DNA from: Dictyostelium discoideum
Taxonomy: Eukaryota
Direction of reading: 5' to 3'
Assembly (NCBI GenBank): GCA_000004695.1
Contig: CM000154.2
Span: forward strand, 3,584,001 to 3,648,000
Length of the DNA stretch: 64,000 nucleotides
The notes under the pieces were generated by a model. The model made no database searches and was not told the origin of the DNA. It saw nothing but the letters and a program-made list of their open reading frames with translations. Position numbers and translations under genes: made by a program. The first letter of the stretch is position 1. Every line of letters begins with the position of its first letter. Of the stretch, positions 3,001-30,136 are shown piece after piece.

Positions 3001-3891
3001 GTATTGGGATTGGTGTGACTATTTTTGATATTGAAAAGTTTGAAAAAAAAAAATTAGTAAAAAAAATAATAATATAAAAAAAAAACAATAATACCATACC
3101 ATTAATTTTTGTTGTAAATGTTATTAAATCTACTGATACTCCAATTTCACTCATTAAAGTACTATTGATTAATACACCAGAATTGATTGGATCTTTAGTT
3201 GTATCAATTGCACCTATAAATGTCATATTTCCTTTATAACCTTTAAGTGGAATTGTAGGTACATAACTATTAAATACTTGATAAGGTTTCATAATATTTG
3301 TATTAAGAGTTGATGTAAATAATGGTTGATAACCATAACTCATTTGAGTATAATTTGAATTAATTGATAATATATTTGATGGGAAAAATGTTTCAAAATG
3401 AGTTGTTGGTAAATCTTTCTCTTTAACTAAAAAAAAAAATATTAAAAAAAAAATAATAATAATATATTATTAATAAAATTTATAAAAATCCAATATTATT
3501 TTATTAAAAAAAAAAAAAAAGGTAATAAAAACTTACATAAAGAATAATAAGTATCGAGCTTGAAAGAAAATGATTTACCATCATTAAAATTCATTGTAAT
3601 TTCATATTCTTTAGTTAAATTTAAACCATAAGAAATTTGATTTATCAATATACAATAGTTGAATGAATTTGAAAAGTAAGTATATTGAATGATAGCAGTA
3701 GTGCTTGGAATTGTTTCATAATAATAACCAGGTTCTAAACCTTCTAAAATAATATAGTACAAAAAATAATTTGAAAAACTAATTGGTTTTGTTGAATTTA
3801 CAACTTTTACTTTATCAATATCAATATCTAAAAAGTAATAAATAAACCACAAAAAAATTTAATATATTAATAAATTATATTTTCCATATTC

Positions 3892-3941
<50 letters not shown>

Positions 3942-4326
3942 TACCTAAACAATTTGTATTAAGTTGATATGTTTGTTGAAAATTATCACTAGTTGTAAAT
4001 GTTAATACTTGAGAATTTGTTCCAATTTTTTGATTACCTTGAATATTTGTAAATATATAATAATTATTATTGTTTAATATTTGATAGAATGAAACATCGT
4101 TATTTAAATCGCTTGAAAAACTTGTGATAGTTTTACCAACTGGAATTTCAATTAAAATTTTAATTTCAAAGCTACACTCATAATTATTTTTTGGATATTT
4201 TGAGAATGTTGAGTTTATTGATTGGGCTAAAATAGATTGTTGTGGAGTTAAAGGTGTTAATTGCGATTCATTTAATTTTATGAAAAAAAAAATTATAAAT
4301 ATCGATAAAACATAAAATTTATTCAT
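1..4326 (-). CDS. Tgr-like type I membrane glycoprotein, paralog 1 (partial; last ~120 codons lie beyond the window start); multi-exon
   Basis: ATG at 4326 opens a signal-peptide exon (MNKFYVLSIFIIFFFIKLNESQ...), with donor G|GTAATA at 3945 (phase 1). Exon ORF pieces lie at 3852-3496 and 3343-2381; the terminal exon runs from ~1860 to 1. nt 1-700 are near-identical to 5348-6060 of paralog 2 (EGF-like CLGNPECGG...CICYSPWIG block and PT linker). The 46-nt poly-T/A run at 3893-3938 lies in intron 1. Confidence 0.6.
3893..3938. repeat. poly(A)46 homopolymer (intronic in paralog 1)
   Basis: Uninterrupted run of A on the plus strand. The ORF track reads it as poly-Phe, but it follows a G|GTAATA donor and is intronic. 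Confidence 0.8.
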
Positions 4327-4987
4327 ATTTTTTTTAATTCTTAAAAAAAAAAAAAAAAATAAAAATAAAAGAATATGTGGATAAAAAAAAAAAAAAAAAA
4401 AACTAAAAAAAAAAAACCACGTACTTTTGTGAGGATATGAATTGATTTATTCGATTAATTGAAAACAAATTATGAAACTCGAAAAAAATTGATTAAATAA
4501 CCAAGAGTTTAAAAATTTTTACGTGCTTTAACTTGTTCCCATTTCTATTTTTTTTTTTTCGTGCATTTTATAAAATTTATTTTTACCCAGGTAAAAAAAA
4601 AATAAAATAAAAAAAAAATAAAATAAAAACAAATATCTAAAACAAAAAAAAAAAATAAAATAAAAAAAATAAAAAAAAGATATTTTTTTTTTTGGGTAAC
4701 AATAAATGTAAAAATAAATTTGCATTTAAAAAAAAATAAAAAAAAATAAAAAAAAATTAAATAGATAATTAATAAGTTTTTTGTAAGGGTGGTTGGATGT
4801 AAAAATTTAAGCGTTAAAGTGGTGAAAAGTAATTTTTCGGGCTGTGGGTCTTTTTTTTTTTTTTTTTTTTTTTTATTTTTTTATTTTCTATGCGACCCCC
4901 CTTAATAATTAATGCTCAAAAAAAAAAGTTAGATTGTGCAGATAATTTCCAACACTACTTTTTCATAAAGTAAAAAAAGATAGATTT

Positions 4988-7900
4988 TTAATTTTTATTC
5001 ATTTCAGCCATTTTTCTATTCACAGAATCTACGAATTTCTTTTGTTTGTTCTTTTTAATGATTATATAAATAACACCAATAATTATTACAGCAGCGAAAG
5101 CGATTGAACCAACAATAATACCAGCTAATTGAGCAGTTGTTAAACCAGAATTACTTTTTGTACAAACTGAGTTATCTTCATCAGAGGCTGATTTGCTATC
5201 GATAAGCACTGAGAAATCTGGATCAACTATTATTGAGTTTCTATAATTTGGAATTGTAATACCAATAAATGATTGTAATGATGATGATGAACTATCAATT
5301 ACATTTAATGATGAATCTAATAAAACATTACTTATACTTTTAACAGTATTATCAATAATAGCACGTTTAATGAATCTACCATAAAGTGAATGATTTTCAA
5401 TTTGAATCTTTAAATAATTTGAATCATCACCTGTTGATGTATTACCAAATTGATTTGATGTGCAAATATCATTTGAGTTTGTTGTTAATGATGCTTCCAT
5501 TACTAATTGAAGTTGATTTAATGAACTTTTAAATTGATATTCTGTAATTTCAATTGTATATTTAATACTAGATGGATTCATTGTTAAATTTTGATTTGCG
5601 AATTGAATTGGTGTACTTTGATTAAACCATTCTAAAGTTGCTGTTATATTTGTATTTGATACTGTTGTAAAGTACTGATTTTTAAATTCGTTAATTGGTG
5701 TATATATCCATTGATCGAATTTATAATTATTTACTTCTTTATTATTAAAATCTAATTCTCTTAATGATACTAATGATATTAATGATTTAAATATCATTTT
5801 TTGAGATTCTTCACTATTTGTTTCTGATGATTGACCATTATTATCTGTTGGTATTTCAACATCTGGTTTTGTTGTATTAATTGATGGTTGTGGTACAATA
5901 ATAATTTGAGAAGTACAAGTTACTCCAATCCATGGTGAATAACAAATACAACCTGTTGATGAACAATAACCTTGATTTTTACCACCACATTCTGGATTAC
6001 CTAGACATTTTTGTGGTGGATTGGTTGGAATTGGTGTTATTGTTGGTATTGGTGTTGTGGTTGGTATTGGTGTTGGAGTTGGTATTATAGTAGAATTAAA
6101 ATAAACTGGATTAACAATAAATTCATTTGATATGAAACCATCAATTGTTAAAGCTTTAATATAGAATGGGCTCTTAGTATTTTTAATTCTTCCCACTCTA
6201 ATTGCTGATGATCCATGAATTAACATTAAACTTGCTGAATTTGGCGTCAAACTACTATCGCTGTAAACAAAATCAATTCTGGAAACTTTTGAAAAACCTC
6301 TACCATATATAACCAATTCACCATTATCATCTGAATAATATCGATCTGTTGATTTGATTACTGGTTGGTTAATTGTAAATGTTGTATTAATATAATAGTT
6401 TGAGAGTGGTACTCTTTGAATATCATCACTTGAATAACCATAATAATAACCACCATTATTTACAATACCATATACTGAAAATATTAAAGCATTTGGGAAA
6501 CCAAAACCCAATGGTAATTCAGTTGCACAGGAATAAGAAACATTTGTTATATTATACGATACTAATTTTGATTTACATTCTACCAATCCATTAAATAATG
6601 AAGTTATATAAATTATTGGTAATTGATCGATTTTAATAATCGGTACACCACTATCAATTGAAAAATCAAATGAAATGGTTCTATTGGTCGCACCTACATC
6701 AATGGTTGTTGCTGATGTTGTAAATGATAATAATGTTGGTTTTATATTTTCTATTACTTGTAATATTGAACATGTAAATGGTAAAACTGTAATACCAATA
6801 CCTCTTTCTAAGAAATTAATAAATGGATTAATTATTGAAGCAGTAAGTAATGAAGGTGTATATAAATTAAATCTTGAAGCTATTTTATTTGTATCAAACA
6901 ATATAACTCTAACGATTCTATATTCTTGTGATATACATGGTTGAGTAATATTAATTAAAATTTGATATTGGCAATTGAATTTATCACCAATTACATCATC
7001 GATTGTAAAATTGAAATGATAAGTTGAACTATCAATTGAACCCATTACTTTAATATAACCACTTTCAAACCCATTTAAATCATCTGTAATATTAAATTTC
7101 CAACCAATTGTACCTGTTGTTGAAATTACTAAACCATTTCCAATTTTTTCAAAAGAACTAAAAATTGGACCTTGATTGTCAAGTTCTATAATTTATAAAA
7201 AAAGAAATTAGTTTTTTTTTTTTTATGATTATTTAATTTTTTCATTCAAATAAATAATTACCAGTCTTATCTACAAAGAGTTCATTAACTATATCAGTAC
7301 TATAAAATCCTGATTCTGGTGAATGTTCAATCATATATTGAATATTTCCAAACATATTATTCTTTGGTAATATGAATTTACATTCAAATATTCCTGTGCT
7401 GGCATTGTAAATGAATGGATTTCTATATAACATATTGGCAACATCAGTCATATCTCTTTCTATTGGAAATGATATTATATCCAATAAAACAAGTGCCATT
7501 GTTTTATATGGTGGAATATCGCTTGAATTTACATACAAAATATTATAAGAATCTTCCTCTAAGCTTAAATTATTCTTTAAAAATCTAATATTATTGTTTT
7601 GAAAATTTGAAATATTTAATTCTAAATTATTATTTTAAAATAAAGGAAAGTATTCATTAGTTAAAGTAAAATTATTTTATTTAATAAAAAAAAAAAATCA
7701 AAAAATCAATATTTAATATAATACATACTATAACTTATTTCTTGTGGTAATTGGAATATAACTAATGGATCTATTGAAACTATATCACCTGGATTATAAA
7801 TAGAACTATAACCATATAAATCAAACATTATAACATATTTTACACCATGAAAACCTGTAATTAATTCAAATGTACCATTGTAAATTGTGCCACTAACTAA

Positions 7901-8800: not shown

Positions 8801-9673
8801 ATTAATAATTATTATTAAATTTAAATAATATAAATAATGATATTAAAATGATATTGTTACATTGAGAGAAATATGATCCAATACTAATAGGAAATAACCT
8901 ATTGTTACTAAATTTTAAATTAAAGTTTATATCTTGAGATAAATTTTGTAAAGCACCTAAACTCAACTGTATTACATAATTATAAATTGGATCACCTGAA
9001 TGGAGGATGTTGACACCGGAAACATAATCTGTATATATTTCTATAGGAAAATGTGGTTTTATTCCAGATATTTTGAGGTAGTAATAATAAGATGAAGCCA
9101 TATGAAAAGGTTTTGTTTCACTTATTACAAAAAGATCATCAATATTTAAATCTTTAAAAAAATAAAAATAAAAATAAAAAAAAAATTTATTATTAATATG
9201 TATTATTTTATAATTATTATTGTTATTATTATTATTATTATTATTATAAATATATACATATTATTTTAAATAATAAAATAAAATATCTTACCACTACATG
9301 TTGTCATAAATTGATATGTATGATTATTATTATCGTTTGTTGTAAATGTTAATTCTTGATAATAAATTCCATATTCTAAACTTCCATATGAAATAAGATT
9401 ATACAAATATTTATCATTGGTTTGAAATTTTTGATTAAGTTTAAAGTTTGTATTATTAGTTGATGCACTTGTTATGGAAACACCTTTAGCTTCTATTTGA
9501 ATATTATATGAATTTTGGTTGCAATATCTACTATCTGATGAATATGGAGTTCGAGAGAAAATTGGATTTACCACTGATGCTAATAAGGTTGTTTCTGGTG
9601 TTATTGGTGTAAATTGAGAATTATTAACTCTTAAAAAAAAAATTAATAAAAACAAAATTATTAATATTTTCAT
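4988..9673 (-). CDS. Tgr-like type I membrane glycoprotein, paralog 2 (complete; ~6 exons)
   Basis: ATG at 9673 (MKILIILFLLIFFLRVNNSQ signal peptide), donor G|GTAAGA at 9291 (phase 1). Exon ORF pieces lie at ~9101-8802, 8615-8433, 8131-7706 and 7538-7242. The terminal exon ~7190-4988 (685-aa ORF) carries an IPT/TIG-like motif (PVIKSTDRYYSDDNGELVIYGRGFS), a PTPTPIPTTTPIPT linker, an EGF-like module (CLGNPECGGKNQGYCSSTGCICYSPWIGVTC), a TM (AGIIVGSIAFAAVIIIGVIYIII) and a short basic tail. The stop codon is included at 4988. Confidence 0.7.
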
Positions 9674-9690
9674 CTCCACTTTAAACAATT

Positions 9691-9743
<53 letters not shown>

Positions 9744-9876
9744 CAGAACACAAAAAAAATTTATTCGTTCTTTAGTGGTGATCGAAAATTGATGTTTGCA
9801 TTCTTTTGAAACGCCAAAAAAAAAAATGATTGTTTTTAGTTTTTTTTTTAGATTTTTTAAAATATCTAAAATTTTG

Positions 9877-11857: not shown

Positions 11858-14560
11858 TTATTTATTATTATTCAATTTATTCAATTTATTATTGATTGAC
11901 ATTTCGAATTTCTTTTGTTTTTTGCTTTTTGTGATAGCATAGACAGTAGCGATAACTATTACAGCAGCGAAAGCGATTGAACCAACAATAATACCAGCTA
12001 ATTGAGCAGTTGTTAAACCAGAATTATTTTTTGTACAAACTGAATCATCTTCATCAGAGGCTGATTTACTATCGATAAGTACTGAGAAATCTGGATCAAC
12101 AACTATTGAGTTTTTATAATTTGGAATTGTAATACCAATAAATGATTGTAATGATGATGATGAACTATCAATTACATTTAATGATGAATCTAATAAAACA
12201 TTGCTTATACTTTTAACAGTATTATCAATAATAGCACGTTTAATGAATCTACCGTAAAGTGAATGATTTTCAATTTGAATCTTTAAATAATTTGAATCAT
12301 CACCTGTTGATGTATTGCCAAATTGGTTTAATGTGCAAATATCATTTGAGTTTGTTGTTAATGATGCTGCCATTACTAATTGAAGTTGATTTAATGAACT
12401 TTTAAATTGATATTCTGTAATTTCAATTGTATATTTAATACTTGACGGATTCATTGTTAAATTTTGATTTGCAAATTGAATTGGAGTACTTTGATTAAAC
12501 CATTCTAAAGTTGCTGTTATATTTGTATTTGATACTGTTGTAAAGTATTGATTTTTAAATTCGTTAATTGGTGTATATATCCATTGATCGAATTTATAAT
12601 TATTTACTTCTTTATTATTAAAATCTAATTCTCTTAATGATACTAATGATATTAATGATTTAAATATCATTTTTTGAGATTCTTCACTATTTGTTTCTGA
12701 TGATTGACCAATATTATCTGTTGGTATTTCAACATTTGGGTTTGTTGTATTAATTGATGGTTGTGGTACAATAATAATTTGAGAAGTACAAGTTGTTCCA
12801 ATCCAAGGTGAATAACAGATACAACCTGTTGGTGAACAAAAACCTTGAGTTTTACCACCACATTCTGGATTACCAAGACATTTTTGTGGTGGGTTGGTTG
12901 GAATTGGTGTTGTTGTAGGTATTGGTGTTGTGGTTGGTGTTGTGGTTGTGGTTGGTGTTGGTGAAGGAGATTCAGTAGGTGTTGGTGGGATAGTTGCATT
13001 AAAATAAATTGGATTAACAGTATATATGTTTGATGTTAATGTATCACTTGTTGAAAATGTAATATCAAAAGGTTTATTAGTTGATTTAATTCCAGATATT
13101 TTAATTGCTGATGATTCATAAACTACTAAAGGTGGGAATGAATGAGGTGCTAATGTACCATCTCTATAAACAATATTAACTTGAATAACATTTGAAAAAC
13201 CTCTACCATATAGAACCAAATCATTATCATCTGAATAAAATCTATCAGTTGATTTAATAGTAGGTTGATTAAATGAGTATGTAGTATTTGCGTAATAACC
13301 AGAAGTAACTGTAGATAAATCCTTTGGAGTATAACCATAAAAGTAACCACCATTATTTACAATACCATATATTGAAAAAATCAATTGATTTGGATAACCA
13401 AAGCCAATTGGTAATTCTGTTGAACATTTATAAACAACCTCAACATTATTATATGATATTAATATTGTATCTCTACATTCAACTAAACCAGAAAATAATG
13501 AATTTATATAAACAATTGGTAATTGATCTTGTTTTATTGTAGATGTACTTGTACCAAATGAAAAATCAAATGAGATTGTTCTATTTGTTGCACCTACGTC
13601 AATGACTGATGTTGATGGTGTAAATGATAATAAGCTTGGTTTTGAATCTACTAATGTTGAATCTGAGCATTCAAATGGTACAATTGTAATATCAATACCT
13701 TTATTTAATAAATTGAGGAATGGATTAAGTATTGCTGCGTTTGCAAGTATAGGTGTATATAAATAAAATCTTGAAGCTATTTTATTTGTATCAAATAATA
13801 TAACCTTAATAATTCTATATTCTTGTGATATACATGGTTGAGTAATATTAATTAAAATTTGATATTGGCAATTGAATTTATCACCAATTACATCATCAAT
13901 TGTAAAATTGAAATGATAAGTTGAACTATCAATCGAACCCATTACTTTAATATAACCACTTTCAAACCCATTTAAATCATCTGTAATATTAAATCTCCAG
14001 CCAATTGTACCTGTTGTTGAAATTATTGAACCATTTCCAATTTTTTCAAATGAACTAAATAATGGACCTTGATTATCAAGTACTATAATTTACAATAACA
14101 AAAAATTAGTTTCTTTTTTTTTTATTATTAGATATATTAAAAAAATTATTATTAAAAAGGTAAAAACTTACTTGTATTATTTGCAATTAAAGGTTCAATT
14201 AATTCATTACTATGTATACCCAATAGATTTCCATAGAATACTGTATATAGAATTTTTCCAAACATATTATTCTTTGGTACAATGAATTTGCATTCATACT
14301 TTTTAGTTTGAGCATTGTATTTAAATGGAAGCTTAACAATCATTCCATCGGAATCACTACTATCTCTTTCAACTGGGAATGAAATAATATCAATTAATAA
14401 TAAAGATAATGATTTTTTAATTGGAACATAATCATTAAAATCAATATACATAATATTATAAGAATTATCTGTCAAATCTAAATTATTCTTTAAAAATGTT
14501 ATGTTAAAGTTTGTAATATTTAATACTAAAATTAAAAAATTAATAATTAATAAATGACAT

Positions 14561-14613
<53 letters not shown>

Positions 14614-15670
14614 TTAAATGATACTTACCAAATTTGATTTCTAGTGGTAAATCGAAAATAACTAAAGGATCTATAGAAATTACATCACCTGGGTTATAAT
14701 CTTTACCATTTCCCAATTGATCATAAATTGAAACATAAAGAAGTTGATCGGGTGTACCAACTATTTCAAAAACACCATCGTAAATTGTACCACTAACTAA
14801 TGTTCCTGAACCAAAAGCATTTAAAGGTGAGTAAGTATTAATGGATCTAACACCAGAAGAACTTTCAATTTTTAAACTTAATATATACATATAATCTGAT
14901 ACCTTGGTATATCTATATGATATTAATTGAGGTGGTGTAGAAACTTTAGTTGGAAATGTTAAACTTTGATAAATTTCAATATTCGATGAGGAAGAGCCTA
15001 TATAAAAATAATTTGAAGCAGTTGGAGAAGTTTCCTTTAATCTATTAAATGAAGTTTTGAATTCATAATTTGCGTTATTACCTGAATAAAAACCATATGG
15101 CCAACTTTGATATACAGTAACCCCATATATATATAAAAATAAATCAGTACCTTGATATTGATATCCATTGTAAAAACTAAGAGAATTTATTAGAGCTTCA
15201 GTATTTTCTTGAGATAAATAAGTTGAAGTTGGTCCCATCATTGGTATATTTAAATCTTTAATTATTATTATTTATTTTTTATTTATTTTAAAATTAATAA
15301 TTAATAATTAATAATTAATAGTTAATAGTTAATAATTAATAATTAATAATAATTTATAATACAAACCTGTGATATTTGGGTTATATACTGTTGAATCAAT
15401 AGAGCTATATCCATTTGCAGTTACAAGTGTACTACCTCCCATAATTGAACCAATATATGTCATATTTCCTTTTGTACCTTTAATTGGAAGACTATATATA
15501 GGAGAATACATAAAGAAATAATATTGATATGGTCTCGCTATATTTGTATTGATTGTTGATTGAACTACTGGATTACAACTAGACCCAAATTGATTAAAAT
15601 TATATTCTGTTGATAATATTTCTGGTGGATAAAATGTTTCTATATGACTTGTTGGTAAATCAACTTGATT

Positions 15671-15716
<46 letters not shown>

Positions 15717-16601
15717 TATATATGGAAATAAATTAATAACTATTAAATTATAATTTTAATTTTAATAATAAACACTTACATTGACTATAATATGATTTTA
15801 ATTTAAAAGAAATATTTCTATCATTACCAAAATCAAATGTTACATCTAAATCATCAGTAATATTTTGTTGATTGAATTGATAAATTTGCAGCAAATAATT
15901 AAAACGCGATTCACCTGTTACTATTACAGAACCATAGGAATTCTTTAATCTTATTCCAACTGCTTGGTCAGATTTTTCAAGTCCAGTAAGTGAAATGTAG
16001 TATAAGAAAGAACTATAAAGGTAAATTGGAGTTAAATATTCACTAATATTTAATTTATCGAATTGGAAATCTTTTTTTTTTTTTAAATAATATTAAAATT
16101 AATATTTGAACTTAATAAATTACACCAAATCAATTTTTTTTTTTTTTTATTTTTTTTTTTTTTTTATTTTTTTTTTTTTTTTATAATAAATTATAATAAC
16201 TTACCATTACAAGTTAATGTTAATTGATATGTGTGGTCAATTGTATCATTTGTTGAAAATGTTATTACTTGATAATTAATTCCAAAGTTTTGATTATATT
16301 GTGTTGCAAGAATAAACATATAGGAATTTTCTTTTTGAAATTCTTTTTCAATAGAAAAATTTGTATTATTAGTGATTGCACCTGTAATTGAAAAACCACT
16401 TTGAGCTGTTATATAAATTTGGTAACTTTTATATTGGCAATAAGAGTGTTCACTCGAAGCTGGAGAATAAACATAAGTTGGGTTAATATTAACTACTGAA
16501 GCTTGTATGGTTGACTCGGGTGATAATGGCGCGAATTGGGAATTACTGAAATTTCCAAAATAAAAAATAAATAAAAATAAAATTGTTGTTAATATTTTCA
16601 T
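11858..16601 (-). CDS. Tgr-like type I membrane glycoprotein, paralog 3 (complete; ~6 exons)
   Basis: ATG at 16601 (MKILTTILFLFIFYFGNFSNSQ), donor G|GTAAGT at 16204 (phase 1). Exon 2 is ~16075-15790 (DFQFDKLNISEYLTPIY...). Exon 3 is 15672-15367 (acceptor A-run+G at 15673, donor G|GTTTGT). Exons 4 and 5 lie within ORFs 15241-14540 and 14475-14152. The terminal exon ~14088-11858 (694-aa ORF) has the same IPT-like, PT-linker, EGF-like, TM architecture. Its last ~1030 nt are >98% identical to paralog 2, while its middle is only ~50% identical. Confidence 0.7.
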
Positions 16602-17277: not shown

Positions 17278-17310
<33 letters not shown>

Positions 17311-17454
17311 TTTAAATTAAGCTTTTTTAATAAAAATAATTATTGTCAAATTATGTTCCCATAAATAATATTAAAAATTTAATTATTTTTGATAAAAAAA
17401 AAGGAAATAAACATATGATTAAGGGCTTCTTACCGCAAATAACAATCAAATTAG

Positions 17455-17560
17455 GTATAGAATAGGTGGGAGACGCAAGTCGATAGTGAAATACCACCAC
17501 TAAAGTGATTCGGGGTGGACTGAAAAGTCCCGTACTATTGCATTACAGCCCCCTTCCTTA
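17455..17560 (+). rRNA. LSU (23S/26S-type) rRNA-like fragment, ~110 nt, isolated (pseudo/relic)
   Basis: A GC-rich island in an AT desert: GGTATAGAATAGGTGGGAGACGCAAGTCGATAGTGAAATACCACCACTAAAGTGATTCGGGGTGGACTG. This matches from memory the conserved LSU rRNA domain IV segment (yeast 25S ...GGTGTAGAATAAGTGGGAG...CAGTGAAATACCACTAC...; E. coli 23S ...GATAGGTGGGAG...GAAATACCACC...). No flanking rRNA sequence is present, so it is a fragment, not a gene. Confidence 0.45.
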
Positions 17561-17687
17561 AATGGAAGTTCTTCTAAGCCCTGTTTTTATTTTTATTTTT
17601 TTTTATTTTTATTTTTTTTTTTTATATTTTATATAAATATACATATTTTTATTTATTTTATTTTATTTGAATTTAATTTATTTGGTT

Positions 17688-17996
17688 TTATTTATTTGTA
17701 TTTATTTTTTTTAAAATTTTTTGAATATATAAAAAAGTAGAATTTTGATATTTTAAATTTTCTTTATCATTGTTTGGGAAAGTGATTGATTTAATTTCCA
17801 TTAATTCAGAAGTTGAAATTGATATTAAATTATTTCTAAAAAAATATTTAATAATCTCTAAATAATTAAATTTTAAACAAACTTTAATTAAACTCCAATC
17901 AACTGATGGGAAATTTTCCTTATAATTATCAAATATGAATTTAATAACTTTTAAATTTCCAAATTGAACAGATTCTTTAATAATTATTTCTAATAA

Positions 17997-18052
<56 letters not shown>

Positions 18053-19884
18053 AATTATGTTGAAGATATTTTTTAATGAAATTTAAATCACCATTTTTTA
18101 AAGATAACCATAATACAGATTTCAATTGTGATGAATTATTATCATTATTATTATTATTTAATGAATCTATATAATCTTGTAATTTACCAACACAATATTT
18201 TAATAAGTTTAAAGTATCAGTTGGAAGTGAAAACTTATTAATATTGATTAATATCCAATGGAATAGTTTTAAAATTATTCGATTAAATGGTAAATCATTT
18301 ATAGATGGTGGTAAAAATGAATATTTCTTATTTGTTGGATAATTTTCTATAACAAATTTAAAATTTTCAAAATCTGTTTCAGTAATTTCATCATTAAAAT
18401 AAATATATATAATTTCATTTTCATTTAGCATTATTGTTTCTTTTTCACTATATTTATCATTATTAACTGTTGTTGATGTTGCTTCTGTTGTTTCTGCTGT
18501 TTCTGTTGGTGTTGGTGTTGTTGGTGTTGTTGGTGTTGTTTCTGTTGTTGGTGTTGGTGTAGTTGTTGATATTGGTTCAATTTCTTTTTCAATTTGATAA
18601 ATATTTGGATTTTCAATAATACGTTTGACATTTTTTAAATTAATAATATCAATTTCAGGTTCTATTGAAGTTGCTAATAAATTATTTTGTCTAATTAATT
18701 GTTCACATTTTTCTAATAATGGGATATTTGATTTTGATTGAATTTCATCTAAATCCAAGATACCTTTTCTACCTTCAATATTTAAAGCATAAATATAATC
18801 TAAAACTATTGGTGATTCTACAAATGAATAGATATTATTAAATCTTTCTACAATAAATGATAATACACCAAATCTATTATCTATACCAGTAGTGGAATAT
18901 TCATTTTCATCATTATTTAAATAATCTTCATCTTCATTTTCATTATTATTATTATTATCATCTTCACTAATATTATCATCTACTTTTCTTCTTTTTGTTT
19001 GTCTTTTAAATTTTCTACAATAGTTTACTTTAATTTTCAATTTATCAGATGCCATCTTTATTAAATCTATTTGATCATATTCAACAATTAAACAAAATAA
19101 AATCCATGGATCAATTAATGAACATTCAGACATTTTTGATATGAAATTCTTTTTTCTAGTTTTATCATTAATACAGTTTTCAAATAAAAATGATTTTGGT
19201 TGTTGTTGTTGTTGTTGTTGTTGTTCTTTTATCAGCTTTTGTTTTTTTTGATAATAATAAAATTCTTGTAATAAAAACCTCATTGGATTGGTTTCTGGTA
19301 TTGAATGATCAATATATTTTAACATTAAAATTAACATTTCATAATTTCCAAATTTAAATGCATCAATTAAGCTCATACCACTAAAATTTAAATTTACACT
19401 TGTTGGTGGTGCTCCAAATTTACAATAATAAACTAAACTTTTATGTTCCGATAATGCTACTGATAAAGATTGTTGTTGTTGCTGTTGTTGTTGCTGTGAT
19501 TTACTTTTATCTAGTAAATTTGATTCTGGATGCATACAATTATATGCTGTACCACTACTAATGATATAATAAAATTCTAATAATTTTTTAAATTTTAAAT
19601 TTGATGAATCGAAAAGTTGTAATGGTGTTTCTAATTCTTGTTGGCTAAAATTCATTACATTAATTTGTTTCTCTACTAGATATTGATTTGTTGATAGTGA
19701 TGTTATATTATTACTATTATTATTAATAGTTGGTGTTGTTGATGATTTTTTATATAATTTTAATTTGTTAAATATTAATGCTGATGTTATTAATGTTTTT
19801 AATTTAATATTTAATTTTATTGGACATTCTCTAAAAAGTGTAAATGTAATTTGTTTTTTAAAATCTTTAATACTATTTTGATTT

Positions 19885-19970
<86 letters not shown>

Positions 19971-20550
19971 TTTTGATTTTATTTTTTTATTTTCAAATTT
20001 ATCAGAATCTATTGGTTTTTGAATGAATTGTGAACAATCTGAAAGTAAGAAATTTATAAAATCTAAATAACCTTCAAACTGATCTCTATTTAATGAACCA
20101 TTGAAACTACTTAATGATTTTAATAAACAATTCCAAATTTTATTTGAAGTGATTGATTTTTGAATTTCTTCATTATCATTATTATTATTACCATCTTTAT
20201 CAATAGTAGTGGTTGTTGTGGTTGTTGTTGTTGTCTTTGTTGAATATAGTTGATTAAAATCATCTTCAAAACCAGTTGTATTATTATGATTTATAATTAT
20301 CCATTTTGAAATATCAAAATTTTCAAAGAAAATAGATTGAAAAAGGTTTGAATAAGTTGGTTGATAATTAAATTTCTTACAAATTGATTTCAATGAATAT
20401 TGATTATTTGATAATATCGATGAATTAACAAGTGTATATCCAATATTCTTTTTTTTAAAATATTTTAATTTTGAATATCGCTTTAATAATGATTTATAAA
20501 ATTCTTGATCTTGTTCGTCTTTAAAATATTTAAATATATTTAAAAATTCA

Positions 20551-20582
<32 letters not shown>

Positions 20583-20966
20583 TATTATATTATTTTTAAA
20601 ATTTGTATAAAATTTAAATAATTTATCATCTAATGATTGATTATTGTTATTATTATCTTGTTCTTCATTTATTAATCTTTTTTGTTCATCTAATTCTATT
20701 AATTTATAAAATTGAATTTGGTTATCACTTTTTTGTAATTCTAATGATGTTGATGGTGTATTACTATCTAAAACTAAATAACAATGACTCTTCATTAATT
20801 TATATTTTAATGTCGCTCTATAATTATTGTTGATTAACCATTTAATTGAATGTTTATTTTCAGTGGGTGATAATATATTATCATCTTGTATTTCGTAGGA
20901 TAAATATTTTATAATCTTTTTAAATATAGTTTTATTATGTATTACTTTATAAAATAATATATCCAT
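17688..20966 (-). CDS. large N/Q/T-rich hypothetical protein (1092 aa), paralog of the 27605-30136 product
   Basis: Single uninterrupted ORF. The N-terminus MDILFYKVIHNKTIFKKIIKYL shares the LF(Y/W)K(V/I)xxN...IF(K/E)KI motif with the plus-strand gene at 27605. It contains poly-N, poly-Q and poly-T tracts and a PT-rich segment. No catalytic domain was recognised. Confidence 0.6.
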
Positions 20967-21965: not shown

Positions 21966-23078
21966 TCAATAACCTATAATTTTTACATTTTTAGGAACAA
22001 AAGATTCAATTAATTTTTTACAACTTTTCAAAATATAGACATTGTTTAATGTATTAGGAATTGAACCAATCATCAAATCATGTTTTATACCACCAAAAAG
22101 TAACTCTTTAACACTTTCTGGTATTATACCTTTGGTTAATTTTTGATTGAATCCATCACATAAAGTAAGAGTTTTTACAGTATTAGGAATTGAATCAATT
22201 ATTAATTCTTGTTTTATATTACCTATTAACAACTCTTTAACACCTTCTGGTATTATACCTTTGGTTAATTTTTGATTGAATCCATCACATAAAGAAACAG
22301 TTGTTACAGTATTAGGAATTGAATCAATTATTAATTCTTGTTTTATATCACCCAAAACCAACACTTTAACACTTTCTGGTATTATACCTTTGGTTAATTT
22401 TTGATTGAATCCATTACATAAAGTAACAGTTGTTACAGTATTAGGAATTGAATCAATATTTAATTCTTGTTTTATATCACCTATATGTAACTCTTTAATA
22501 CCCACTGGTATTATACCTTTGGTTAATTTTTGATTGAATCCATTAAGAAGCATAACATTGTTTGGTAATTTTTTTACTTTTGATAAGATGTCACAATTGT
22601 CTTTGAATGCTAAACTTTCGAAATCTCCAGACAATATAGATGATTCATCATTCTCTGAATATATAAAAAAATCGTGATTCCATACTAAAAACAAAGAATT
22701 AGTTTTTTTTTTTTTTTTTTTTTTTTAGACTTTTTTATTTGGGTCTAACTTACTGTTGATGAATTTATTTTCATTGATTGAGTTATTTAAATTATTATTA
22801 TTATTATTATTATCAACAAAAGAGTATATTGATTTAAAACTATTTTTAATATTATTAATTGTGTGATTATCGAATTTTAAGATTTGATTATTATATTCTT
22901 TTAGTTTATTAAAATTATTGATATTATTATTATTATTTAATATTAATAATGATTGTTGATATTGTTTAATTAATTCAATAGTATATGTATCAATTTGATA
23001 GTCATCATCATCATCATTGTTGTCATTGTCTTGTTGATTATAAATTTGTGAAAAATGATTTAATTTATCAAAAATTGA

Positions 23079-25149: not shown

Positions 25150-25910
25150 TTTTTTTTATTTGTGCACTATTTTGACATTTTCTGGAACAAAGGGCCAATT
25201 AATTTTTTACAACTTTTATAAATATTGACATTGTTTAATGTATTGGGAATTGAATCAATCATCAAATCTTGTTTTATATCACCTATGTGCAAATCTTTAA
25301 TGTTATCAGGTATTGTAGCTGGTGTTAATTTTTGATTGAATCCATCACATAACCAAACAGTTGTTACAGTATTAGGAATTGAATCAATTATTAATTCTTG
25401 TTATATATCACCTATAAACAACTCTTTAACACCTTCTGGTATTATACCTTTGGTTAATTTTTGATTGAATCCATTTTGTTGATAGTTGTTTTTCAATATC
25501 CAATTCAACAAATGAAAGTATATTGTGAATTTTTTTAAATTCATTTTTTAATAAACTATTACAATTATCATTTTGTGATTGAATTTGTTTGAAAGTATCA
25601 TTTGATTGTTTTAATAATATTTGATCATTTTCTTTCAATTAATTTTGGATAAATATTATCTTTAAAATCATTAATTAATGAATATTTGATGCTGATGATT
25701 CTAATAAATCAGTTTTATGACCATGATGTTCACCTTTACGAGAAATACAAAGACTACAACATGGCATAAAACTGATTTATGCCATGTTGTAGTCTTTGTA
25801 TTTCTCCATGGAATAAATTTACAATCCAAACATAAAAATTCTAAATTTTTATTTGGATGTAGTGTACATTCATTTTTATTATTTGTAATTATATCTTCAC
25901 TTTCTATCAT
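25150..25910 (-). pseudogene. B-box/FNIP gene copy B: pseudogene with internal deletion and inverted duplication
   Basis: N-terminal B-box codons are present ([32 protein letters not shown]...) but interrupted at 25740-25806 by an inverted duplication. The coiled-coil segment ([23 protein letters not shown]...) is fused directly at ~25480 to decayed FNIP units (25160-25470). The exon-1 tail, the intron and the exon-2 head are missing, and the frame is broken. Confidence 0.65.
25740..25806. repeat. perfect 31-bp inverted repeat (hairpin) with 5-nt loop inside pseudogene B
   Basis: The left arm GAGAAATACAAAGACTACAACATGGCATAAA (25740-25770) is the exact reverse complement of 25776-25806; the spacer is ACTGA. 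The intact paralog (23525-23560) has only the left-arm sequence continuing ...CATAAATTTACAATCC. Confidence 0.9.
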
Positions 25911-26141: not shown

Positions 26142-26997
26142 TTATATGTTTACTATTTTGACATTTTCAGGAACGAAGGGATTAATTATTTTTTTACAAC
26201 TTTTATAAATATGGACATTGCTTAATGTGTTAGGAATTGAATCAATAATTAAATCTTGTTTTATATCACCTATATGCAAATCTTTAATGGTATCAGGTAT
26301 TATACCTTTGGTTAGTTTTTGATTGAATCCATCACATAAAGTAACAGTTGTTACAGTATTAGGAATTGAACCGATTATTAATTCTTGTTTTATATCACCC
26401 AAATACAACACTTTAACACCTTCTGGTATAGTACCTTTGGTTAATTTTTGATTGAATCCATCCCATAAAGTAACAGCTGTTACAGTATTAGGAATTGAAT
26501 CAATTATTAATTCTTGTTTTATATTACCTAAACGTAACACTTTAACACTTTCTGGTATTATATCTTTGGTTAATTTTTGATTGAATCCATCCAAAAAGCC
26601 AACATTTGTTACAGTATTAGGAATTGAATCAATAATTAATTCTTGTTTTATATCACCTATACACAACTCTTNNNNNNNNNNNNNNNNNNNNNNNNNNNNN
26701 NNNNNNNNNNNNNNNNNNNNNNNNNNNNNNNNNNNNNNNNNNNNNNNNNNNNNNNNNNNNNNNNNNNNNNNTATCATTTTGTGATTGAATTTGTTTGAAA
26801 GTATCATTTGATTCTTTTAACAATATTTGATCATTTTCTTTTCTTTCAATTAATTTTAGATAAATATTTTTATTAAAATCATTAATTAATGAAAGAATAT
26901 TTGATTCTGATGATTCTAATGAATCAGTTTTATGACCATGATGTTCACCCTTACTGGAAATACAAAGACTGCAACACGGAATTAATTTACACTCCAA
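26142..26997 (-). pseudogene. B-box/FNIP gene copy C: 5'-truncated and interrupted by a scaffold gap (pseudogene or assembly casualty)
   Basis: FNIP units lie at 26142-26670. The B-box/coiled-coil part (26772-26997) starts mid-domain (..[24 protein letters not shown]..). The first ~35 codons ([15 protein letters not shown]) are absent, and the conserved upstream motif abuts at 27008. Confidence 0.5.
26672..26771. other. assembly gap, exactly 100 N
   Basis: The N run lies inside the FNIP/coiled-coil region of copy C. This is a conventional fixed-size scaffold gap placed in a tandem-repeat array. Confidence 0.95.
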
Positions 26998-27296: not shown

Positions 27297-27604
27297 AAAA
27301 ATAATTAATTTTATTAAAAAAATGAATGTAACCATCCTGTTTTGAATTTTTTTAAATCAAAAATTTTTATTTTTAAAATTTATATATTTACCAATTTTTT
27401 GAAATTGTTTTTTTTATTTAAAAATAATACAAACGGAAAAAATTTAAAAAATAAAATTGGAAACAAACCAAAATACGTTTCGCAGTCAAAAAAATAAAAT
27501 AAAATCAATTGAAAAAACTTTTTTTCACTTGCGACATTATAGTTGACCTATTAATACACTATTATTTTTTTTTTAAAAAAATTCCACACTCAAAAAAACA
27601 AATA

Positions 27605-28043
27605 ATGGACAGAAATAAAAATGAAATATTATTTTGGAAAATTTTTAGAAATTCATATTTAAATAAAATAATATTTGAAAAAATTAAATGTAAATGTAGA
27701 TTACTTTGTTATTCATATGATAAAATCTTTTTTTGTGAATGGATGATAATAAATAATTATTTAGAATTATTGAAATATAAAGTAAGAAGAGGTGATAAAT
27801 TAATATTTAATAATACATGGGTGAATGTATTCTATAATTATGAAAAATTAACTAGAACCCAACCAGAATCATTAAAACGTTCAAATTCAAGATTTAAATA
27901 CGATCAATTAGAAGATGATTATTCTTTAATTACTTCAAAAAAAGGAATTTATGAAGTTAATTCAATTTTTAATTGGTTTAAAGATGATTATGATTTTTAT
28001 TTAAATTTATTTAAAAATTATTCAAATTATTTTAAAGTTAATA

Positions 28044-28126
<83 letters not shown>

Positions 28127-30136
28127 GATTATGAAAATCAAGAAAATAATAAAATAAAAAAATTACGAATGTGTCAATCAGAAAGTAGAACGTCAGTTCA
28201 TCCATTATCATTAAAACAAATTATAAATCTTATAATTGTTTTTGATAATGTTTCTGCAATGAAAGTTTTAGTTGGACAAGGTTATTATATTAGAGATGAC
28301 GAACAAATTTTTAAAGATTTTATAAAATCATTTGAAATTGGTTCATTAAAATTAGCAGAATTTATTTATAATAATTATTTAAATTTAGAATTTACAAAAG
28401 AAAAAGAAAAGATTCAATCACTTTGGAATTTAGCTATTTTTACTGAAACAAACTTTATAGATATTCAAAAAGAAGATGGATTAGAATTATTTTTAAATAA
28501 ATTTTATTTAATGAAGAAATTAAAAAGCAACGACAACAACAATAATAATAATAAAATAATTTCAAATTGTGATAGTGAAATAATATTTAAAAATATTCAA
28601 TCAATATTAAGAATGAATATTTTTAAAATTAAATTTAATATTTTAATTGGTTATGCAGAAGTGATATCAATTTTAAATGATCAATTTGATTTTCAAAATA
28701 ATATAATTAAAAATTATAAAGCAAATACAAATAATAAAGATATTAATGAAAGTTTAGAAGAAGATAAAAATGAAATTTCAATTCTATCAATTAAAGAAAT
28801 TAATGAATTAAAATTAAAACTAATTGAAAAAAACATTATAAATGAAATTAAACCATTGAATCAAAATGATTGGAATTCATTAAAGCAAGATTTAGAAGGG
28901 CTATATAAAATGTTAATAATATTTACAGGTTTCTCAATTCCTGAAAATTATTTCATTTTTAAATTAAAATTTAATAAAATATTAAATTTTAAATCAATGA
29001 ATTTCATAACCAATAATCCAAATGATTACTTTTTATATAATTTAAAAGATGGTGGTAAACAGTTGATTTATAACCCAGTATTTTCAAATTATAAAAATGA
29101 AAAGATTCAAATAAAATCATTTTTAGAAAATTGTCTTTTAGATTTAAATTTAAGAGATGATAAATATCAATCAAATAATTTATTTTCATTAATTATTAGA
29201 GATAATCAAAATGATGATGATCATGAAATCATTGAATATGGTATAAATAATCTTTTATTTAAAGGTGAATTACCAATTGATTATAATTCATTTAAAAATA
29301 TAAAATCAATTAAAACATTTGATTTTATTTTTAAATCAATTCAATTAAAATATCCAAACAATCTTTCAACTAATTTATTATCCTCAATTATTGATAATTT
29401 CCAACTTGCCACTCATTTCAAAGAAAACTATCCAAATCAATATAAATCATCATTAAAAACAATTAAATTCAGTGATATTAGTGAATTTAAAAATTTTACT
29501 CAACTCAAATTTATAATTCACAATTGGTTAGATTTTAAAAATATAATCATAAAAAGTAAAGGTAAAAATTGGGCCCAAGATATTGTAAGGTATAAAAAAG
29601 AATTTAATATAAATGAATTTAAAACTTTTGTTTCATGTTTTGATAATCTTCAAAATACCGACACTAGAAATAATAACGATGTCAAAGAAGAAGATGATGA
29701 TGATAATGATGATAGTGATAATAAATCACTTTATTATGCAAATGATACAGAAGAATCATTTTATGTTTACCAAAATAGACCAGAACATTTAAAATCTGGT
29801 ATATGTGAACCTATCAGAATTGAATTCATGAACACCATTAATTACATTAATGGTAAGTTTGATTTCTCTTCTTTAAATTTTGAAAAAGAATCTAAATATG
29901 GTGACTTATTTAAACATATCGTTCAAAGATGTGATTTTAATGCTATTGATCAATGTATTTCAATTTTAGGTCAACCAAGCCAAGAGGAAATTGATCTGGA
30001 TTATAAAAATTTAGATGTCATCATACATATTCTATCTCGAGAAGCTTTTGAAAATGGAAATACTATTGTTTTCGATTATTTACAAAATAAAAGTAGTAAG
30101 GGCTTCATTGAAATAAATGATTGTTATCCTTGGTAA
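27605..30136 (+). CDS. large N-rich hypothetical protein (~843 aa), paralog of the 17688-20966 product
   Basis: The likely start is the internal ATG at 27605 in AAAATGG context (MDRNKNEILFWKIFRNSYLNKIIFEKIKCKC...). The track ORF starts upstream at 27509. The shared N-terminal motif marks it as a paralog of the minus-strand gene at 17.7-21 kb. It has poly-N and acidic tracts, and the stop is at 30134-30136. Confidence 0.6.

Follow-up and report, generated by a model that had tools for sequence, protein, structure and literature searches.

Class I RNAs are abundant, Dictyostelia-specific non-coding RNAs (ncRNAs) that are linked to the transition to multicellularity and whose molecular function is unknown (PMC7919456). 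Their genes are recognizable by shared signals: the Dictyostelium upstream sequence element (DUSE) lies ~60 nt upstream of many dictyostelid ncRNA genes, the RNAs have a conserved AAG start with G as the first base in D. discoideum, a CUGU end with its C paired to the 5′ G is a hallmark of the class, and many of the genes have T-runs 3′ of this end (PMC7919456). Direct binding to a Class I RNA is documented for Rnp1A, the protein of this class (PMC7919456), and the published set includes DdR-66 and DdR-67 from D. discoideum and DpuR-27 to DpuR-30 from D. purpureum (Kjellin et al. 2021, Genome Res; PMC7919456 supplement). Here, we describe a locus in a 64,000-nt stretch of the D. discoideum genome (assembly GCA_000004695.1, contig CM000154.2, positions 3,584,001 to 3,648,000), hereafter the window, to which all coordinates refer and which amounts to 128 kb when both strands are counted. 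A GC-rich island in this window is, in a reading that we hold with somewhat better than even confidence, the middle of a small ncRNA gene of the dictyostelid Class I type, which runs from G17423 to U17584 on the plus strand (~162 nt) and carries a module resembling the L1 stalk of the ribosome.

Helices 76–78 (H76–H78) form the L1 stalk of domain V in the established nomenclature of 23S ribosomal RNA (rRNA). The double T-loop of the stalk docks the tRNA elbow by stacking on its G19:C56 platform, and the same double T-loop module is used by T-box Stem I and by RNase P (PMC3664808). The ribosomal protein uL1 contacts the H77 duplex, the J1-2 junction, the base of H78 and loop B, the last being the contact of uL1 domain II, and bacterial and archaeal uL1 has a second target, a mimic of this rRNA site in its own mRNA (PMC5689012).

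The window RNA can be set against each of these systems. With the canonical Class I RNAs (42–65 nt, e.g. DdR-21), it shares the DUSE, a start at AAG/G, a terminal stem of 6 bp whose sequence covaries, the CUGU end and the T-run, and it has a near-match to the 11-nt motif adjoining the 5′ strand of this stem; it differs in the stem itself (GGGCUU, compared to GUUGAC), in lacking a TGTG box, and in having a structured rRNA-like domain in place of the canonical variable region of ~30 nt. With the L1 stalk of the nuclear 26S or other large-subunit (LSU) rRNA, it has in common both T-loop strands (UAUAGAAUA and GAUAGUGAAAUA), an H76-like stem, the H77 duplex GGUGG/CCACC, the GA junction, and an H78 that is a short hairpin capped by a GNRA loop. 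However, the module in the window stands by itself in an RNA of 162 nt that has a promoter of its own, its H76 is shortened and AU-rich, its H78 stem sequence is unlike that of the organism's own rRNA, and there is no continuation into H75 or H79.

The uL1 operators of bacterial and archaeal mRNAs, which serve translational autoregulation, are similar in being mimics of the rRNA site off the ribosome, and in this respect the window RNA is likewise a candidate for binding free uL1 (PMC5689012). These operators are prokaryotic, act in cis within the mRNA and are minimal, with a J2-1 much shorter than loop B of rRNA (PMC5689012), whereas the window RNA has a complete stalk with both T-loops, is predicted to be a trans-acting eukaryotic ncRNA and does not lie beside a uL1 gene. 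The T-box Stem I apex and RNase P also present head-to-tail T-loops off the ribosome (Lehmann et al. 2013, PMC3664808); by our interpretation of that work, their modules are L1-stalk-like in structure and little so in sequence, whereas the window module is rRNA-like in sequence and is accompanied by neither a specifier nor a catalytic domain.

The L1-stalk-like module and its Class I relatives

A first-pass annotation, made from the letters of the DNA, had described positions 17455–17560 as an LSU rRNA-like fragment aligning to domain IV. The likeness to LSU rRNA is real and far beyond chance, and the rRNA-like words quoted at the time, ATAGGTGGGAG (17460–17471) and GTGAAATACCACCAC (17486–17500), are indeed present. 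The domain was misassigned, as a position-by-position check on the E. coli 23S gene rrlH places the segment in helices 76–78 of domain V, the L1 stalk (E. coli 2111–2178). The extent was also too generous: local alignment to real LSUs never goes beyond 17451–17505, and nothing else in the 162-nt unit resembles rRNA. A single occurrence of the 17-mer TAGAATAGGTGGGAGAC was found in the window, with 0.03 occurrences expected, and a metagenome scan for GGTGGGAG-N6-20-GTGAAATACCACC returned 120 contigs, all 120 of which have an L1-stalk-like sequence context around the match. The four contigs closest to the window (L051, L101, L004 and L022) match Rfam LSU_rRNA_eukarya with 1598–2751 bits.

The agreement extends to individual positions. 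In T-loop 1, the Class I modules are invariant at positions 3, 4, 5, 7, 8 and 9 and vary at positions 1, 2 and 6; a set of 101 distinct real LSUs shows the greatest variation at positions 2 and 6, rare variation at position 1, and near-invariance at the six positions that are invariant in the Class I modules. The GUGAAA-A of loop B is invariant across the family, and the GCAA loop of the window H78 is the same as that of H78 in the D. discoideum 26S, the stalk region of which reads GGTGTAGAATAGGTGGGAGGGGCAACCCGACGGTGAAATACCACC / GGTGTAGAATAGGTGGGAGGGGCAACCCGACGGTGAAATACCACCCCTTTTGG in the PMC7919456 supplement.

The same module recurs in published Class I RNAs. DdR-66 (141 nt) and DdR-67 (104 nt) begin with GGGCUUCUUACAGCAAAA, end with CCCUG, and both contain GUGUAG[A/G]AUAGGUGGGAGAC...GUC....GUGAAA[U/G]ACCACC; DpuR-27, DpuR-28 and DpuR-29 (identical to DpuR-30) have the same architecture of a 5′ handle followed by the module. 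The pattern [UA][GA]UAG[AG]AUA-G[GC]UGG-GA-hairpin-N4-GUGAAA[UG]A-CCA[CG][CU] matches six of six RNAs, after the Class I 5′ handle, and a MAFFT alignment reveals a block of invariant columns across the module.

A covariance model (R1) was built from five published RNAs only (DdR-66, DdR-67, DpuR-27, DpuR-28 and DpuR-29), with the window and all rRNA left out. This model matches the window at 17423–17539 with 77.8 bits (E = 3e-12), while the next best match in the 128 kb, at 25367–25473 with 13.4 bits (E = 3.3), is noise. The same model finds real L1 stalks, scoring eukaryotic LSUs at 40.7–52.1 bits and E. coli 23S at 34.9 bits, and because a model built without rRNA detects genuine L1 stalks, we identify the module as an L1 stalk. 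The window outscores any rRNA by ~26–37 bits, since the Class I handle is present in addition to the module.

These results are best read as placing the window locus in a subfamily of Class I RNAs that mimic the L1 stalk, of which it would be the third D. discoideum paralog. Its first 17 nt match those of DdR-66 and DdR-67 at 16 of 17 positions (GGGCUUCUUAC[A/C]GCAAA), and with these two RNAs and DpuR-27 to DpuR-30 it shares a DUSE 56–58 nt upstream, the terminal stem, the CUG(U) end, and an L1-stalk-like module placed at the same point, after an A-rich linker. DdR-66 and DdR-67, both validated by RNA-seq coverage (PMC7919456), lie ~400 bp apart on chromosome 1 (DDB0232428:1892629-1893273), whereas the window locus lies elsewhere; being present once in the window, it is therefore distinct from DdR-66 and DdR-67. 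It also departs from the published relatives in its length (162 nt, compared to 98–141 nt), in a 65-nt 3′ domain of its own, in an A-to-C change within the 11-nt motif, and in an H78 loop, GCAA, that is as in 26S.

The signals expected of a Class I gene surround the module. The TCCCATAA box ends 58 nt before the first G of the RNA, and the published classifier (score_class_I.py) accepts DUSE gaps of 56–64 nt. Only 11 DUSE matches occur in the 128 kb, from which the chance of a DUSE within the accepted 9-nt range of distances is ~8e-4; this box is the sole DUSE of the window with a GC-rich island downstream, and the remaining matches in the window have none. The 3′ boundary of the predicted RNA is set by the terminal stem, the CUGU and the T-run. 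The inverted sequences that the first-pass annotation had pointed out on either side of the fragment are real and correspond to the 6-bp stem GGGCUU/AAGCCC, whose first pair joins the 5′ G to the C of CUGU (G17423 with C17581). The motif UCUUACCGCAA, adjoining this stem, agrees with the consensus CCUUACAGCAA at 9 of 11 positions and with UCUUACAGCAA of DdR-66 and DdR-67 at 10 of 11, and GGGCTTCTTACAGCAAA is matched in the window with one mismatch, where 0.02 such matches are expected.

Covariation was evaluated on a hand-registered alignment of six RNAs (A3), in which gaps were written as N to pass through MAFFT. Across 12 pairs of inner H76, H77 and H78, 93.1% of cells are paired, compared to 29–61% when the partners are slid by 1–3 columns; both sides have changed in 4 of the 12 pairs, and the covariation score was reached in 0 of 500 shuffles. 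Specifically: (i) the inner four pairs of H76 are 83% paired across the family, two of them having changed on both sides; (ii) H77 is 100% paired in the six members, with a G-U in DpuR-28 and with a double change at position 2, which is G-C in five RNAs and C-G in DpuR-27; and (iii) the middle pair of H78 is A-U in the D. discoideum copies and G-C in the D. purpureum copies and in 26S. Given the module sequences together with the 26S stalk, RNAalifold predicts H77 and H78 unaided, with three compensatory pairs. The terminal stem (P1) comprises 5–8 standard pairs in all six members and also covaries, being GGGCUU/AAGCCC in D. discoideum and GGAUUC/GAAUCC in D. purpureum. Neutral DNA is expected to be saturated between these two species. 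Judged from the sequences, the structure of the module appears to be under selection.

A separate observation concerns other members of the class. Hairpins resembling the tRNA T-arm (GGUUCGAWYC loop, 4–5 bp) occur in three further Class I RNAs, DpuR-22, asu_can_20 and ppa_can_99 (PMC7919456 supplement), with ~0.5 such words expected by chance in the set, an estimate for which the set size was approximated; ARAGORN found no complete tRNA in these RNAs. Both partners of the contact between L1 stalk and tRNA elbow appear to occur as inserts in Class I RNAs.

Proposed function and competing readings

In the reading that we consider probable, though far from assured, the third paralog is transcribed, recruits Rnp1A, and binds uL1 and/or the tRNA elbow. 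Transcription would start from the DUSE promoter, probably by RNA polymerase III, and would end at the T-run, after which P1 and the 11-nt motif would recruit Rnp1A. The L1-stalk mimic would then bind free uL1 (Rpl10a) and/or stack on the elbow of deacylated tRNA, and the resulting ribonucleoprotein (RNP) might act as a decoy or an adaptor that ties Class I RNA function to the translation apparatus. The elements of the uL1 site, namely the H77 duplex, J1-2, the base of H78 and loop B, can all be recognized in the sequence of the window RNA, which probably binds uL1 and/or tRNA elbows. The module itself may have been captured from rRNA before D. discoideum and D. purpureum split, and then kept by selection on its structure.

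More tentatively, and with rather less than even confidence, we suggest a role for the subfamily as a whole. DdR-66, DdR-67, DpuR-27 to DpuR-30 and the window locus may be trans-acting, free-standing L1-stalk mimics that form cytoplasmic RNPs, bind uL1/Rpl10a or the elbow of deacylated tRNA, and act with the T-arm-like Class I RNAs on the translation machinery in the switch to multicellular development. The presence of an L1-stalk module hints that Class I RNAs touch the translation machinery, and an almost exact L1 stalk in a conserved subfamily offers a first concrete, testable lead on Class I function. It raises the questions of whether uL1/Rpl10a, tRNA or stalk-recognizing factors are bound, and whether ribosome composition or free uL1 is tuned in development. 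If true, this would be the first eukaryotic ncRNA built around a complete rRNA L1-stalk module within the literature searched; it would add a eukaryotic trans-acting case to the extraribosomal uses of the module (L1 mRNA operators, T-box Stem I and RNase P), and would indicate that small RNA genes can take up structured rRNA domains by exaptation.

Several observations weigh against a functional third paralog or the mechanism proposed for it. Position 7 of the 11-nt motif is C in the window and A in 37 of 37 curated D. discoideum Class I RNAs, a change that might reduce the binding of Rnp1A or be a sign of decay. The RNA, with its 162 nt, is 2.5 times the usual Class I length (42–65 nt, median ~60). 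Neither the curated D. discoideum list nor the set of candidates with a covariance model (CM) score of at least 15 includes the locus (Kjellin et al.), and a covariance model of 36 short Class I RNAs (R2), run with filters off, gave no match at the locus and only noise elsewhere. The paralogs are of low abundance (~10^2–10^3 reads), and bulk titration of an abundant ribosomal protein is therefore disfavored: DdR-66 has 86–901 reads, with an ~8-fold rise from 0 to 8 h, and DdR-67 has ~100–250, compared to ~10^6 for DdR-21 (PMC7919456). The covariation test covers only six sequences. The equivalent of G2112, part of the tRNA-stacking platform, is A in the window and in DpuR-28, but in only 2 of 101 real LSUs. 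Finally, the minimum free energy (MFE) fold pairs the region of the 11-nt motif (CUUCUUACC, 17429–17437) with GGUGGGAG (17465–17472, H77 5′ strand); this pairing and the L1-stalk fold are mutually exclusive, and the L1-stalk fold lies above the MFE by 3.3 kcal/mol (37 °C) to 5.6 kcal/mol (22 °C).

With regard to length, curated Class I members of 77–141 nt exist (DdR-64 to DdR-67), and with regard to the motif, the element CAUUACAGC in the 3′ domain, described below, might offset the A-to-C change in the canonical copy at 17428–17438. The pairing of the motif with GGUGGGAG could represent a conformational switch or an artefact of the energy models, which leave out T-loop tertiary contacts and proteins.

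The absence of the locus from the published survey is best understood through the length limits of the models used. The longest curated D. discoideum Class I RNA is 141 nt, the locus sequence occurs in 0 of the 57 supplementary files of PMC7919456, and Table S2 of that work contains no unnamed candidate that corresponds to it. In the published classifier, a locus with TCCCATAA at 58 nt passes with a CM score of at least 15 (13.9 + 5 + 15 > 32); because such a score would pass, yet no such candidate is listed, the locus scored below 15 bits in the published search, in which DdR-66 and DdR-67 scored 20.7 and 17.9, respectively (PMC7919456). We attribute this outcome to model length. The gene is one that length-limited covariance models missed, and a model of the R1 type is applicable to all dictyostelid genomes. 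The text of PMC7919456 makes no mention of rRNA or the L1 stalk for these RNAs, and a link between Class I RNAs and the L1 stalk was not found in the literature searched, several older Dictyostelium ncRNA papers being outside that search; a complete L1-stalk mimic in a Class I subfamily appears not to have been described before.

These considerations bear directly on the alternative that survives best, which we regard as unlikely though deserving of serious attention: that the locus is a real paralog of DdR-66 and DdR-67 that is silent or degenerating, or that its module is an inactive captured piece of rRNA, in line with a general tolerance of Class I variable regions for captured bits of abundant RNAs. 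The absence from the curated and candidate lists would suit such a passenger, but is explained by the model length limits. The A-to-C change at a position invariant in D. discoideum, and the extra 65-nt 3′ domain without relatives, are compatible with decay; they occur, however, in a gene in which the DUSE, the AAG start, P1, the CUGU and the T-run are all intact, as are all those module positions at which neither the family nor LSUs vary. The T-arm-like hairpins of other Class I RNAs suggest promiscuous capture, and the paralogs are weakly expressed, but the pairing of H76, H77 and H78 has been maintained by compensatory changes, both among the paralogs and between the two species.

Less probable again is an RNA that docks tRNA elbows without the involvement of uL1, its double T-loop grasping tRNA as T-box Stem I and RNase P do; through such an RNA, the Rnp1A RNP would acquire tRNA or tRNA-like Class I RNAs. 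The conservation of both T-loops is as this reading predicts, and three unrelated RNAs use this module to dock tRNA elbows (PMC3664808), but the stacking platform is altered where A replaces the G2112-equivalent in the window and in DpuR-28. The T-arm-like hairpins in some Class I RNAs are possible partners, although elements relevant to uL1 and not to tRNA are kept as well (the H77 duplex, the GA junction and the first G-C of H78).

Origin of the module

The ultimate source of the module is very probably nuclear rRNA. The first-pass annotation had considered the match closer to the bacterial or organellar form, a view that the comparison with real LSUs does not bear out: the window has CCACC with ACT after it, a combination that occurs in 21 of the 29 nuclear-type LSUs and in none of the 66 bacterial or organelle-type LSUs. 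Over 46 nt, the module shares only 84.8% identity with L022, the nearest rDNA for comparison. This rDNA matches the D. discoideum 26S throughout the L1-stalk region and differs at a few bases downstream. The stem of H78 is GAC/GUC in the window, compared to GGG/CCC in the organism's own 26S; because of this difference and the limited identity to L022, the module is not a recent copy of the organism's own rDNA. As a side observation, L022 is a metagenome contig (Ga0307414_10002705) with a complete rDNA unit (small-subunit rRNA, 5.8S and LSU), and since its stalk is identical to that of the D. discoideum 26S, a Dictyostelium-like amoeba was present in that JGI metagenome.

Database searches agree with a short, embedded likeness. 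The Rfam LSU models, to which the first-pass annotation had looked for confirmation, provided none: at the gathering threshold, Rfam gave 0 matches of any kind in the whole window, and at E ≤ 10 over 17300–17700 it gave only AT-rich junk (CrcZ, LSU_trypano_mito and RsmY on the minus strand), with no supporting LSU match. A blastn search against E. coli genomes gave no match, the rRNA likeness being too short. In 400 kb of D. discoideum FASTA, including mitochondrial-looking sequence, a word search for GAAATACCAC found it only in the 26S and in a protein gene, the power of this search being limited by line wrapping.

An orphan pseudogene fragment in an AT desert, derived recently from the nuclear rDNA palindrome or by an insertion of the mitochondrial rnl gene (a nuclear mitochondrial, or NUMT-like, event), would account for the real LSU likeness but is very improbable, given that the likeness covers only ~50 nt at 84.8% identity to L022, that the flanks within the transcription unit are unrelated to rRNA, that the CCACC-ACT signature is nuclear, that neither the Rfam LSU models nor the word search of limited power lend support, and that six Class I RNAs with promoter and terminator signals share one self-contained structural module in a corresponding position. 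What was found instead is essentially a longer ncRNA gene of a different class, an outcome that the first-pass annotation had itself foreseen as speaking against its proposal, although the locus is apparently unannotated.

Other RNA classes were considered and rejected. A U11, U12 or U1 small nuclear RNA, prompted by the words AAGGGCUUCU, GAUUCGGGG and CUUACC, lacks an Sm site and a Rfam match, and the Alu domain of a signal recognition particle RNA on the minus strand lacks a minus-strand DUSE and a Rfam match. The GAAAAGUCC word of RNase P is merely a hairpin without a P4 partner, and a telomerase RNA with the C-run as template is without support. Against a guide RNA of the box C/D or H/ACA kind stand the sense orientation of the rRNA-like strand and the lack of boxes. 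ARAGORN reported no tRNA or transfer-messenger RNA.

Features of the locus and its surroundings

The description of a GC-rich island in an AT desert holds: GC content is 0.36–0.44 across 17400–17599, compared to 0.01–0.2 in the flanks. The island lies inside a 1.1-kb, extremely AT-rich spacer between the ATG of a minus-strand gene (16601) and the stop of a minus-strand open reading frame (ORF) of 1092 amino acids (17688). The features of the predicted gene are listed below.

Features of the predicted gene, in window coordinates
Feature	Position	Strand	Remarks
DUSE promoter box TCCCATAA	17357-17364	+	Exact match to [AT]CCCA[AT]AA (PMC3188802)
AAG start	17421-17423	+	Mature D. discoideum Class I RNAs begin at G (17423); R1 match starts exactly at 17423
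Predicted mature RNA, 162 nt, Class I-type with L1-stalk module	17423-17584	+	Covariance model R1
Terminal stem P1, 5′ strand GGGCUU	17423-17428	+	Pairs with 17576-17581; 6 standard pairs
Class I 11-nt motif UCUUACCGCAA	17428-17438	+	Adjoins 5′ stem strand
H76-like stem, 5′ strand (AAUCA, AA, UUAG)	17444-17454	+	Pairs with 17500-17510; 4+5 bp around a 2x2 internal loop
T-loop 1 UAUAGAAUA	17456-17464	+	Equivalent of E. coli 2111-2119 (UGUAGGAUA)
H77 5′ strand GGUGG	17465-17469	+	Pairs with CCACC 17494-17498; E. coli 2120-2124
H78 mini-hairpin GAC-GCAA-GUC	17472-17481	+	3 bp; long hairpin in E. coli
Loop B / T-loop 2 GAUAGUGAAAUA	17482-17493	+	Equivalent of E. coli 2162-2173 (GACCUUGAAAUA)
H77 3′ strand CCACC, A, H76 3′ strand (CUAA, AG, UGAUU)	17494-17510	+	CCACC 17494-17498 = E. 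coli 2174-2178
3′ domain peculiar to window copy, 65 nt	17511-17575	+	Predicted in free and constrained folds
P1 3′ strand AAGCCC and CUGU 3′ end (17581-17584)	17576-17584	+	
T5 run (TTTTT), Pol III-type terminator signal	17584-17588	+	First T is last U of CUGU

In the predicted fold of the 3′ domain, GGGG...CCCC closes a GGACU-GAAA-AGUCC hairpin (17517–17530) and there is a large loop that contains CAUUACAGC (17541–17549), with the hairpin CUUCC-UUAAAU-GGAAG (17553–17568) after it. The CAUUACAGC element, located in this predicted loop, is a second near-copy of the Class I motif core (UUACAGC). A hairpin of DdR-66 has the same UGAAAA loop as the hairpin of the 3′ domain, on a different stem (CUUC/GAAG). 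The domain has no relatives beyond the shuffle null in 120 rRNA loci or 24 long Class I RNAs.

Among the neighboring protein-coding sequences, the 1092-amino-acid ORF (17688–20966) and an 875-amino-acid ORF 7 kb away (27509–30136) look like one low-complexity, Dictyostelium-specific family, with a similar N-terminal region, 'ILF(Y/W)K(V/I)...'. Neither has homologs in the protein collection searched, in which the 1092-amino-acid ORF was searched both with and without low-complexity masking. Two FNIP-repeat-like ORFs lie on the minus strand, at 21966–22694 and 26142–26807, the second being broken by a 100-N assembly gap (26672–26771). Tandem paralogous multi-exon genes occupy the minus strand at 2381–7045, 9266–9751 and 11858–16601; the N-termini of their ORFs (MGSIDSSTYHFNFTIDDVIGDKF...) are almost the same, the first exons look like signal peptides, and each ORF has a stretch that is Cys-rich and EGF-like as well as a transmembrane segment at its C-terminus. 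The arrangement looks like a recent local gene triplication.

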